This document shows, piece after piece, positions 13,941 through 25,580 of a stretch of DNA of 64,000 nt. Source of the stretch: Candidatus Woesearchaeota archaeon (GTDB taxonomy: Archaea > Nanobdellota > Nanobdellia > Pacearchaeales > GW2011-AR1); contig CAZBWB010000002.1 of assembly GCA_964495875.1 (NCBI GenBank), positions 24,363 to 88,362 on the forward strand. Reading direction: 5' to 3'. A program made the translations under genes and the position numbers. The number at the start of each line of letters is the position of its first letter. Positions within the stretch are counted from its first letter, which is position 1. The notes beneath the pieces were generated by a model, which made no database searches, was not told where the DNA came from, and was given only the letters and a program-made list of their open reading frames with translations.

Positions 13941-13946
13941 CAAAAC

Positions 13947-13954
13947 CTTTAAAT
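13947..13954 (+). promoter_or_regulatory. putative TATA box for tRNA-Ser
   Basis: CTTTAAAT centred ~28 nt upstream of tRNA position +1. Confidence 0.45.
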
Positions 13955-13978
13955 TCCTTCTTTTATTCGAAATATTGA

Positions 13979-14058
13979 GCCTCCGACGCATAATGGTAGT
14001 GCACCTGCCTTGAGAGCAGGGCCCTTTGGGCAACCAGGTTCGATTCCTGGCGGGGGCG
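13979..14058 (+). tRNA. tRNA-Ser (anticodon UGA), class II, no encoded CCA
   Basis: Hand-folded. Acceptor GCCTCCG/CGGGGGC (one G-U). D arm GCAT-AATGGTA-GTGC. Anticodon arm CCTGC-CTTGAGA-GCAGG. 13-nt variable arm GCCCTTTGGGCAA. T arm CCAGG-TTCGATT-CCTGG. Discriminator G. Confidence 0.85.
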
Positions 14059-24739: not shown

Positions 24740-24760
24740 TTTGGGTCTGTTTAGTAGTTA

Positions 24761-25423
24761 ATGAAAAAAGATTTAGATTTGGTGAGAATAATAACTTATT
24801 TATTTTTTGATGGACATTTATATAAAGATTTAAGCTGTTTTTATTTTTCATCGAAAGATGATCAAATTCTAAAAGAACTTGATAAAATTGTTCAAAGAAA
24901 ATTTGGAATTAAAGGAAGATTCTATTATAATGATGGGGGAGCAGGAAGGATAAAGACGCATAAGTATAGAGTATTTAATAAAAAAATCTGTACAGAATTA
25001 AATAATCTTGGAGTGCCAAAAGGTTCGAAAACAATTACAGAATTCACAATTCCAAAGTGGATTATTAAAAACAAAAAATTTGCTAAAGAATTTATAAAAA
25101 TAGCATATTTTTGTGAAGGTTCGATGAAAGAAAATAGAAAAAATCCTAGAATAAAACTTAATATAAATAAGGCGCAACAATTGTTGAAGAATGGATTATT
25201 ATTTATGGAGTCTATTAGAAATATTCTAAAGAAGAATGATATAGAAACCACTAATATAGGAATCTATAATGCTAAAATTAGATCCGATGGTGTTAAAGTT
25301 AAAGAATTAAGATTTAGAGTTATCACTAAGCATAACAATAAGTTTATAAATAAATTTACACCATTTTTTAAATACGGGGCTGATAAGTTACCTCTTGTAT
25401 GGGATTCAAAGGAGCGACAATAG
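24761..25423 (+). CDS. free-standing double-motif LAGLIDADG-type homing endonuclease-like protein
   Basis: Motif 1 IITYLFFDGHL and motif 2 IKIAYFCEGSM about 100 aa apart, 220 aa total (I-DmoI-like architecture with D/E catalytic pair). Confidence 0.6.
   Translation: MKKDLDLVRIITYLFFDGHLYKDLSCFYFSSKDDQILKELDKIVQRKFGIKGRFYYNDGGAGRIKTHKYRVFNKKICTELNNLGVPKGSKTITEFTIPKWIIKNKKFAKEFIKIAYFCEGSMKENRKNPRIKLNINKAQQLLKNGLLFMESIRNILKKNDIETTNIGIYNAKIRSDGVKVKELRFRVITKHNNKFINKFTPFFKYGADKLPLVWDSKERQ
25343..25350 (+). promoter_or_regulatory. TATA box (TTTATAAA) for tRNA-Pro, inside the LAGLIDADG ORF
   Basis: Centre 29.5 nt upstream of the proposed tRNA +1 (25376). Confidence 0.5.
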
Positions 25424-25562
25424 TTCCTTGAGCATAAAGCTGTGGGGTAGCTTGGTAGCCTTTCAGGTTTGGGTGAGGATTAGCTCGAGACGAGTAGAAA
25501 TACAAATCCCGAGAGATCTTCCAAATCACCTGACGACCCCGGTTCAAATCCGGGCAGCCCCA
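25376..25562 (+). tRNA. tRNA-Pro (anticodon UGG) with two introns: exons 25376-25382, 25443-25473, 25528-25562
   Basis: Spliced product GGGGCTG-TG-GGGT-AGCTTGGTA-GCCT-T-TCAGG-TTTGGGA-CCTGA-CGAC-CCCGG-TTCAAAT-CCGGG-CAGCCCC-A (73 nt) is a canonical archaeal tRNA-Pro. Intron 2 (25474-25527, 54 nt, position 37/38) folds into a full bulge-helix-bulge. Intron 1 (25383-25442, 60 nt) is inferred from the displaced 5' acceptor strand. Confidence 0.75.
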
Positions 25563-25580
25563 TTTAGGAAGTCATGCAAA

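Follow-up and report, generated by a model that had tools for sequence, protein, structure and literature searches.

Archaeal transfer RNA (tRNA) genes with more than one intron, including non-canonical introns recognized through a motif termed bulge-helix-bulge (BHB), are known (PMC4033280, PMC4090602), as are introns located near the 5' end of the tRNA, and tRNAscan-SE 2.0 extends its candidates by 60 nt of flanking sequence for such cases (PMC8450103). In split and permuted tRNAs, the BHB is built by pairing between leader and trailer sequences (PMC4090602, PMC4033280). The gain of non-canonical tRNA introns has been called an open question in reviews (PMC4033280), and undetected disrupted genes are suspected behind the incomplete predicted tRNA sets of DPANN archaea (PMC5829648). 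In this article, we describe a candidate disrupted gene for tRNA-Pro(UGG) and the adjacent open reading frame (ORF) for a LAGLIDADG protein in a stretch of 64,000 nt from a Candidatus Woesearchaeota archaeon (assembly GCA_964495875.1, contig CAZBWB010000002.1, positions 24,363 to 88,362 of the forward strand). The whole stretch is referred to as the window, and coordinates given without a locus label are positions in it; labels of the type L004 designate related loci.

Judging from the sequence, positions 25343–25562 represent a tRNA-Pro(UGG) gene of a DPANN archaeon with two introns of the archaeal, protein-spliced BHB type, and the gene is almost certainly functional. The explanation that we prefer as a whole, with a probability of about 0.85, is that of a functional tRNA-Pro(UGG) with one BHB intron at the canonical position 37/38 and another at position 3/4, the latter being built with the participation of a 5' leader. 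Exon 1 is most likely the GGG at 25401–25403 and not the GGGGCTG found further upstream. A first-pass annotation of this DNA, made from the letters alone, had already proposed a tRNA-Pro(UGG) with two introns, and in this it is borne out, every sequence element that it listed being present in its place; the extent and the splice motif of the second intron require revision.

The tRNA-Pro gene and its intron in the acceptor stem

Default ARAGORN and Rfam at the gathering threshold leave the tRNA-Pro gene undetected and report only a tRNA-Ser elsewhere in the window, a scan of the whole window at E ≤ 0.1 likewise does not report it, and a T-arm motif scan of the window yields no further hidden tRNAs. 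When introns are allowed, ARAGORN returns a tRNA-Pro(tgg) with a 54-nt intron and with A1–A3 unpaired against C70–C72, i.e., three A·C mismatches atop the acceptor stem. The Rfam tRNA model run in local mode aligns 25439–25558 to model positions 4–67 with 28.9 bits, and the beginning of this alignment at position 4 indicates a colinear gene without exactly its first three nucleotides. The tRNA body from U8 onward starts at 25443 and is immediately preceded by AAAGCTG, of which only CTG had been thought to pair with the 3' acceptor strand; G4 pairs as well, so the paired segment is GCTG and the mismatches are confined to positions 1–3. A match to a C/D-box RNA resembling snR39 at 25330–25385 (E = 3.8) was treated as chance.

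The 54-nt intron at position 37/38 has a complete BHB exactly as first described: TTTG (25468–71) pairs with CAAA (25522–25), the bulges are GG^T and TC^A (^ marks the splice site here and below), and the outer helix is GAGGA/TCTTC. It lies one base 3' of the anticodon with its motif on the anticodon stem TCAGG/CCTGA, and homologous introns are present in L004, L011 and L019.

Relatives of the adjacent L37ae protein in GTDB genomes belong to Pacearchaeota and Woesearchaeota (Nanoarchaeota, DPANN), and the location of tRNA-Pro(UGG) immediately upstream of L37ae is conserved synteny in these genomes. The usual gene is uninterrupted and starts with GGGGCTGTGGGGTAGC at a distance of 23–25 nt from a TTTATAAA box located behind the L11 stop codon. 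The closest relative by neighboring genes, L004 (83% identity in L11, 81% in prefoldin and 79% in L37ae), shares the 37/38 intron with the window, its tRNA gene has an uninterrupted 5' end, and no ORF separates that gene from L11; it is effectively the empty-site allele, reading TTTATAAA-24 nt-GGGGCTGTGGGGTAGTTTGG. The 5' interruption of the window is shared by L009 and L039. A metagenome scan for AAG-NYR-TGGGGTAG... returned 48 stretches, of which 21 are contigs with an interrupted tRNA-Pro, representing 12 distinct genes (two of them the same as L009 and L039), and 27 are unrelated. Further interrupted genes were found in the GTDB set (L043, L047 and L078) and in the contexts of endonuclease homologues (L135, L138, L139 and L140). 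The set of 20 distinct genes referred to below consists of the 14 first examined, the four genes from the endonuclease contexts, and L043 and L078. Exact-protein look-ups of the L37ae and prefoldin of the window gave no match, and that of L11 gave a single 1-kb contig with the same endonuclease-bearing allele; because the look-ups yielded just that one contig, no strain-level presence/absence polymorphism is visible. The identical junction between L11 and the endonuclease gene occurs in Logan run SRR14802574, a DNA data set.

The first-pass annotation had placed the second intron either in the acceptor stem or at the 7/8 junction. The acceptor stem stands, and the position within it is fixed at 3/4 by the homologues. 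In L009, the upstream copy of the tRNA start reads GGGACTG but the junction reads AAA^GCTG (CATAAA^GCTGTGGGG), so that the acceptor stem requires GGG, the intron and GCTG in this order, which is the 3/4 register. Instead of the proposed 60 nt, the best-supported intron spans 35 nt (25404–25438) and is preceded by the GGG at 25401–25403 in a covarying BHB; a convincing BHB had not been folded by hand for this intron, and a complete one exists at this second GGG.

The predicted motif has a central helix of 4 bp between UAUG (25398–25401) and CAUA (25433–25436) and two 3-nt bulges on opposite strands, G25402 G25403^A25404 and A25437 A25438^G25439, and flanking helices (h and h') are present on both sides. 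The inner hairpin (25405–25432) consists of the helices 25405–09/25428–32 and 25411–15/25423–27. The outer helix comprises the pair G25397-C25440 (tRNA C5), a small internal loop, and 11 bp between 25384–94 and 25444–54, the latter segment corresponding to tRNA G9–G19 on the 5' side of the D-arm. The minimum-free-energy fold of 25376–25563 includes both BHB motifs, the helix between the leader and exon 2, and the T-arm (z-score −3.9), and it also pairs the GGGGCUG of the leader start with CAGCCCC.

The main evidence for this structure comes from covariation. In all 20 distinct genes, the 4-mer preceding NN^G4 finds a perfect pairing partner in a word of four bases with G as its last letter and GG directly after it, located 14–42 nt upstream; NN^G4 is AA^G in 18 genes and AU^G in L135 and L078. 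The central helix occurs in the variants UAUG/CAUA, CAUG/CAUG, UACG/CGUA, AACG/CGUU, AAUG/CAUU, CACG/CGUG, GAUG/CAUU, GGCG/CGCU and UGUG/CACA. Over 17 distinct genes its pairing is 100%, and three of the four pairs show compensatory changes; in the same 17 genes, 92% of the cells of the alignment form a standard pair compared to 71% in shuffles, nine of 10 pairs are altered on both sides, and the covariation score was reached by none of 500 shuffles. The pair counts were also made on a 14-gene version of the alignment. As a control, the 3' partner was slid by 1–3 columns, which left 25–50% of the cells paired. The first outer pair switches from G-C to U-A or A-U in the homologues in step with tRNA position 5.

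In silico joining of GGG with 25439–25473 and 25528–25562 produces a 73-nt tRNA with a perfect cloverleaf, identical at 72 of 73 positions to the uninterrupted genes in L001, L006 and L015, and the L001 gene scores 60.9 bits as a tRNA. One might still suppose that the locus is a pseudogene, its 5' end damaged by an insertion of 56–60 bp tied to the arrival of the endonuclease, and that a working tRNA-Pro(UGG) is encoded elsewhere or completed in trans; standard detectors do miss the gene, and only 64 kb of the genome is in view. However, at least 20 distinct genes retain the interruption together with compensatory changes by which the splice motif is maintained, the exons of the window gene differ at one position from those of working orthologues, and the gene occupies the conserved slot upstream of L37ae, and we consider a pseudogene extremely improbable. 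All the exons are arranged in order on a single strand, fit within 162 nt and follow one promoter-like box, which rules out a split, trans-spliced tRNA.

A different way to supply the three absent nucleotides would be a rebuild by a Thg1-like 3'-5' polymerase, where the tRNA is released at G4 (or with AAA at positions 1–3) and positions 1–3 are copied from C70–C72 without any exon being joined. Mismatches in the first three acceptor pairs are the hallmark of substrates of mitochondrial-type tRNA 5' editing, and the colinear mismatches are confined to exactly these pairs. Against such a rebuild, all 20 genes read G-GG at the helix end and in the bulge, which are exactly the three absent nucleotides, and a BHB bulge has no need of GG. 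No Thg1-like gene was seen, none having been searched for, and the mechanism is superfluous once the exon is recognized; we regard it as very unlikely. The features of the locus under the preferred explanation are collected in Table 1.

Table 1. Features of the tRNA-Pro(UGG) locus and of the adjoining LAGLIDADG gene, in window coordinates
Feature	Position	Strand	Basis or comment
Distal TATA box, TTTATAAA	24732..24739	+	Follows the stop codon of L11 directly; putative promoter for the LAGLIDADG gene
LAGLIDADG homing-endonuclease-like gene, free-standing, double-motif, 220 aa	24761..25423	+	Profile, structure model, motifs
Proximal TATA box, TTTATAAA	25343..25350	+	Within the last conserved endonuclease codons; presumed tRNA promoter
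GGGGCTG, copy of tRNA positions 1–7	25376..25382	+	At the predicted transcription start; opens the putative leader
5' leader, 25 nt (predicted)	25376..25400	+	Forms the outer helix of the BHB with exon 2
5' strand of the central 4-bp helix, UAUG	25398..25401	+	G25401 = tRNA G1
Exon 1, GGG, tRNA positions 1–3 (most likely)	25401..25403	+	G2, G3 and A25404 form the 5' three-base bulge; predicted cut after 25403
Intron 1, 35 nt, tRNA position 3/4 (predicted)	25404..25438	+	BHB motif, covariation
Exon 2, tRNA positions 4–37 (GCUG...UUUGGG, anticodon UGG)	25439..25473	+	ARAGORN, Rfam local alignment
Intron 2, 54 nt, canonical position 37/38	25474..25527	+	Complete hBHBh' motif
Exon 3, tRNA positions 38–73, CCA not encoded	25528..25562	+	Ends at A73

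Several related loci carry additional interruptions. L039 (3680–3880; the same in L108), L101 and L088 have three, namely the 3/4 intron and two inserts, one of 28 nt after A38 and one of ~28 nt in the T-loop, and ARAGORN finds no tRNA at these loci. At L115 (100–400) there are four interruptions of tRNA-Pro (3/4, D-loop, anticodon region and T-loop; boundaries approximate), one more than the three introns that reviews give as the maximum for an archaeal tRNA. In L138 (1900–2230), the most divergent endonuclease homologue (40% identity) precedes a tRNA with at least four inserts; the exon-1 GGG is inside the last ORF codons and the intron holds the ORF stop codon. L110 (9240–9400 in tRNA orientation, the reverse complement of the stored locus) contains a tRNA-Pro(GGG) in another gene neighborhood, downstream of rpoN, with a 3/4 intron of only 16 nt, the helix CACG/CGUG, a leader that opens with GGGGCUG, and no endonuclease gene in the vicinity. 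In the window, as in no fewer than 20 related DPANN genomes or metagenome contigs, tRNA-Pro(UGG) is missed or mis-called by standard tools; the leader-dependent 3/4 intron can be searched for by its signature, NNNG-GG^N ... NNNN-AA^G with CUGUGGGGUAG after it.

The leader and the upstream copy of the tRNA 5' end

Comparison with the relatives indicates that the tRNA originally started at the upstream GGGGCTG, which survives as a relic and now opens the leader. It starts 25 nt past the proximal TATA box (25343), whose distance the first-pass annotation had called right, at the place where G1 sits in uninterrupted orthologues (23–25 nt), and the promoter-proximal spacer resembles that of uninterrupted genes. 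The window contains four copies of GGGGCTG on both strands compared to 1.78 expected, which corresponds to ~0.001 expected in any 100 nt of a given strand, and chance does not explain the upstream copy; the TTTATAAA box is found 24 times in the window compared to 9.4 expected. When the leaders of the 20 genes are aligned with the 5' parts of their own tRNAs, the scores sum to 240 compared to 180 for shuffles (0 of 500 shuffles). Among homologues, the copy has drifted to GGGACTG, GGGAGTG, GGGGCTT or GGGTTGA, and it is absent in L082, L115, L135, L138 and L043; with L139 added, six of the 20 distinct genes are without an intact copy. Pairing with the 3' strand was also considered as a selective reason for keeping the upstream GGGGCUG and was rejected, about half of the changes being compatible with wobble pairing and about half disruptive, and neutral decay of the relic appears to be the simpler reading. 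The relics in L086 and L103 share the lineage-specific variant of the acceptor sequence (GAT.. in L086, ..TA in L103), which neutral decay leaves unexplained.

In the first-pass annotation, this upstream copy was the spliced exon. Transcription would then start at G25376 without a leader, exon 1 would extend from GGG to GGGGCTG depending on the register, the intron would measure 60 nt (25379–25438 to 25383–25442), and no RNase P would be needed. The copy is indeed a perfect match at the exact promoter distance of uninterrupted genes, the mature product would be the same as in the preferred explanation, and the tRNA-Ser gene in the window (13946–14058) has a TATA-like box, TTTAAATT, 23 nt from G1, which fits leaderless tRNAs. 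Moreover, three of the 4 nt before the upstream GG can pair with CAUA in most homologues, and all four can in L086 and L128, and the model would gain if these organisms were without RNase P. However, no BHB is formed in any of the five registers: flanking helices are missing in all of them, and the best central helix found by hand is UACG/CAUA with 3 of 4 pairs. The drift or absence of the upstream copy is also at odds with a role as an exon, and in L082, L115, L135, L138 and L043 there is no upstream G-run, so only the proximal GGG can be their exon. Finally, the invariant NNNG-GG motif that covaries with the helix at the 3' splice site would be left unexplained. We conclude that a 60-nt intron is unlikely, and that exon 1 at the proximal GGG, preceded by a leader, is the better reading.

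Leader removal is a corollary of that reading, and two arguments suggest that it exists in this clade. Genes without the relic need their leader removed, and a homologous leader is found in front of two uninterrupted genes, which implies that removal must exist. The latter are L131 (2060–2215) and L137 (1760–1910), where the endonuclease gene is present, tRNA-Pro is uninterrupted, and a spacer of ~21 nt homologous to the leader of the window (GGAGAAUAUAAG...) lies between the promoter position and G1. By sequence, this arrangement looks like a precise loss of the 3/4 intron that left the leader in place, or like a state before intron gain.

We propose the following pathway, in which we infer both the enzymes and the order of steps from the sequence. 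Transcription would begin ~25 nt past the TATA box at 25343, at or near G25376, and the first 25 nt would constitute the leader, its GGGGCUG start being left over from the former tRNA 5' end and its segment 25384–25394 pairing with the future D-arm of exon 2. This pairing would set UAUG (25398–25401) opposite CAUA (25433–25436), generating the 4-bp helix with the bulges GG^A and AA^G, and the splicing endonuclease would cut after G25403 and after A25438. Independently, the endonuclease would cut the BHB of the anticodon arm at 25473/25474 and 25527/25528, and a ligase would unite GGG (25401–03) with 25439–25473 and 25528–25562. The true acceptor stem and D-arm would form after ligation, and an RNase P-type activity would remove the 25-nt leader.

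Several points weigh against this explanation. Beside the 3' bulge, the outer helix of the window gene has just one G-C pair before the small internal loop, and is weaker there than in L009 or L082. The full central helix occurs in the minimum-free-energy structures of only six of 18 genes, with 3 of 4 pairs in a seventh, and its pair probabilities in thermodynamic folding range from 0.0 to 0.57. A weak central helix in such calculations is usual for BHB motifs, and since thermodynamic folding is a weak test, we rely on covariation instead. The 5' helix strands in the alignment were placed partly by their ability to pair, which somewhat inflates the paired percentage; the compensatory pattern is unaffected by this placement because the position is fixed directly before the conserved GGG. 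The tRNA promoters of this lineage sit 23–25 nt from G1, a spacing that is near-constant in the tRNA-Pro genes of L001–L026. Leaderless tRNA transcription has been described for Nanoarchaeum equitans, which is free of RNase P, and the near-fixed distance between TATA box and G1 in the present lineage resembles that arrangement. Lastly, we infer the splice junctions, the transcription start and the removal of the leader from sequence.

The LAGLIDADG gene and its linkage to the 3/4 intron

Profile comparisons and a structure model identify the product of the ORF at 24761–25423 as a LAGLIDADG homing-endonuclease homologue. On its own, the protein of the window matches PF14528 (Pfam LAGLIDADG_3) with E = 0.018 and 15.7 bits, below the 22.5-bit cut-off; LAGLIDADG_3 matches six of eight relatives (best E = 2.3e-8), and a profile of the family searched against PDB finds the intein endonuclease domain 7qsu with E = 4e-6. 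The protein has two motifs, ..YLFFDGHL.. and ..IAYFCEGSM.., and D17 and E119 are invariant in 24 homologues. The AlphaFold model (pLDDT 90, with residues 206–220 below 50) displays a duplicated alpha-beta-beta-alpha-beta-beta-alpha fold, for which Foldseek returns I-Tsp061I, I-DmoI, I-SceI and intein endonuclease domains with E-values of 1e-8 to 4e-10 and also the non-catalytic WhiA.

The ORF overlaps the tRNA gene by 48 nt and covers GGGGCTG, in agreement with the first-pass annotation, whose recommended checks by ARAGORN, folding and related loci were run. The conserved protein ends near codon 205, whereas residues 206–220 are unconserved and encoded by 25376–25420 (leader, exon 1 and part of intron 1); the stop codon at 25421–25423 lies within intron 1, and in L009 the ORF stops before the relic. 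The unconserved tail of low pLDDT and the earlier stop in L009 indicate that the overlap results from incidental read-through. In all relatives, the tRNA TATA box is inside the last conserved codons (..NKFINK..). The distal TATA box is followed after 21 nt by the endonuclease ATG, the mRNA presumably being leaderless, and the same layout is found in L009. At L009 2833–2856, the counterpart of the window start ATG is out of frame through a 1-nt deletion and only a GTG eight codons later is usable; this loss of the start may, by the look of the sequence, mean that the endonuclease gene is beginning to decay.

The region after L11 could alternatively provide the first exon, with GGG at 24743–24745 as exon 1 and all of 24746–25438, including the LAGLIDADG ORF, as one BHB intron. 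Archaeal rRNA BHB introns do carry LAGLIDADG genes (PMC6125680), and the sequence TTTG/UAUG-GGG-TCT after the distal TATA box in the window and L009 resembles a 5' splice motif. However, this GGG lies only 3 nt past the TATA box, so that only transcripts reading through from L11 would include it, the helix of UUUG with CAUA has just 3 of 4 pairs in the window, and the motif is missing in L039. The second TATA box and the relic of the 5' end would fall within such an intron, and the endonuclease gene has its own promoter-to-ATG spacing. We consider a large intron to be as improbable as a pseudogene, and retain the short 3/4 intron next to a free-standing endonuclease gene.

The endonuclease gene and the 3/4 intron tend to occur together. 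All 37 database homologues for which the context was read adjoin tRNA-Pro(-L37ae), directly upstream; the upstream neighbor of the endonuclease varies (an AsnC-type regulator, PTH2 or TrmB instead of L11) and the tRNA side is constant. The 3/4 intron is present in 13 of 18 distinct endonuclease-bearing loci (window, L009, L086, L092, L103, L105 with a partial gene, L126, L128, L039, L135, L138, L139 and L140), and tRNA-Pro is uninterrupted in the other five (L022, L129, L131, L133 and L137), which neither prove nor exclude cutting of the intron-less allele. Five loci have the 3/4 intron without a detectable endonuclease gene (L043, L082, L101, L110 and L123). In the GTDB sample plus window, chosen for neither trait, the intron occurs in three of four loci with the endonuclease gene compared to one of 36 without it (hypergeometric p ~0.0016, not corrected for shared ancestry).

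The closest endonuclease, that of L092 (79% identity), belongs to a host whose L37ae and prefoldin are only 62–65% identical to those of the window, and closer hosts, including L004, are without the endonuclease gene. By sequence, this distribution fits a mobile gene or repeated loss. Both the endonuclease gene and the 3/4 intron are absent from L004, which suggests that they were gained together. ORFs resembling transposases occupy the place of the endonuclease gene at L082 1522–2922 and L123 246–1229 (tRNA orientation, the reverse complement of the stored loci), and L123 keeps only the last ~12 endonuclease codons together with the TATA box.

It is conceivable, although we hold it only tentatively, that the LAGLIDADG gene, the leader and the 3/4 intron form one mobile cassette and represent collaborative homing by an archaeal BHB intron. 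The endonuclease would cut uninterrupted tRNA-Pro in the 5' acceptor region, and repair would install the endonuclease gene and the intron, destroying the target site; splicing of the intron would do no harm, since the cassette carries a GGG exon and a BHB-forming leader of its own. The 56-nt insert is bordered at either end by a copy of GCTG (25379–25382 and 25439–25442). The overhangs left by LAGLIDADG enzymes are 4 nt long, and this repeat could be a 4-bp target duplication of the size of such a staggered cut, its footprint under the cassette scenario, or a product of shared descent; we treat it as a possible clue, a lead rather than evidence. Alternatively, the intron could merely be co-converted with the endonuclease gene, from which it lies 60 bp away.

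In a neighboring gene, L11 (24500–24731), the window encodes an acidic, lysine-rich C-terminal tail of ~70 residues in a protein of 226 aa, and the tail is also present in L009 and other relatives.

Comparison with known systems

Two aspects of this locus look new: the 3-nt exon within a structured leader, and the tight linkage to an upstream free-standing LAGLIDADG gene. In the literature searched, with most subscription papers (including SPLITS) outside its scope, we found no description of a three-base 5' exon in a dedicated leader, of a retained relic of the original tRNA 5' end, or of an association between an archaeal tRNA intron and a homing-endonuclease gene. The 3/4 intron would be an extreme case of a BHB intron in that the leader must persist until after splicing, which imposes an order on splicing and 5' maturation. 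If the cassette reading is true, it offers a concrete mechanism for the gain of non-canonical tRNA introns. The recurrent pairing of intron and endonuclease, the empty site in L004 and the relic of the 5' end provide a directly testable model and hint at intron spread.

The multi-intron tRNAs of Thermoproteales, Thaumarchaeota and ARMAN/DPANN, as detected by SPLITS and tRNAscan-SE 2.0, share with the present gene the 4-bp helix flanked by two 3-nt bulges, the presence of multiple introns in one tRNA, and intron positions outside 37/38, including positions near the 5' end. Here, by contrast, the 5' exon is only three nucleotides long, the leader would contribute three central-helix bases and the entire outer helix by pairing with the D-arm region, the leader opens with the putative relic of the tRNA 5' end, and the intron co-occurs with a LAGLIDADG gene. 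In the split and permuted tRNAs of Nanoarchaeum equitans, Caldivirga, Thermofilum and Cyanidioschyzon, sequences that are not part of the mature tRNA likewise pair into a BHB, but in our case the pieces are in cis on one transcript, 35 nt apart and in the normal order, i.e., separated by an intron.

The LAGLIDADG protein resembles I-DmoI, I-Tsp061I, PI-PfuI and the endonuclease domain of the VMA intein in fold, size and the two motifs with invariant acidic residues, with a sequence identity to the solved enzymes of only 14–20%; its activity is putative. Whereas I-DmoI-type enzymes are encoded inside rRNA introns or inteins, the present gene is free-standing, with a promoter of its own, beside a short tRNA intron. 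Phages reportedly practice collaborative homing, in which a free-standing endonuclease gene lies beside an endonuclease-less intron that interrupts the target of the enzyme (said to be described by Bonocora and Shub in 2009 and Zeng et al. in 2009). The concept is cited in PMC2790892. As in the phage systems, a free-standing endonuclease gene here adjoins a short, ORF-less intron in a conserved gene, and the arrangement is patchy among close relatives. The phage systems, however, involve group I introns and enzymes of the GIY-YIG, HNH or similar families, whereas the present locus combines a LAGLIDADG homologue with a candidate BHB intron in an archaeal tRNA.

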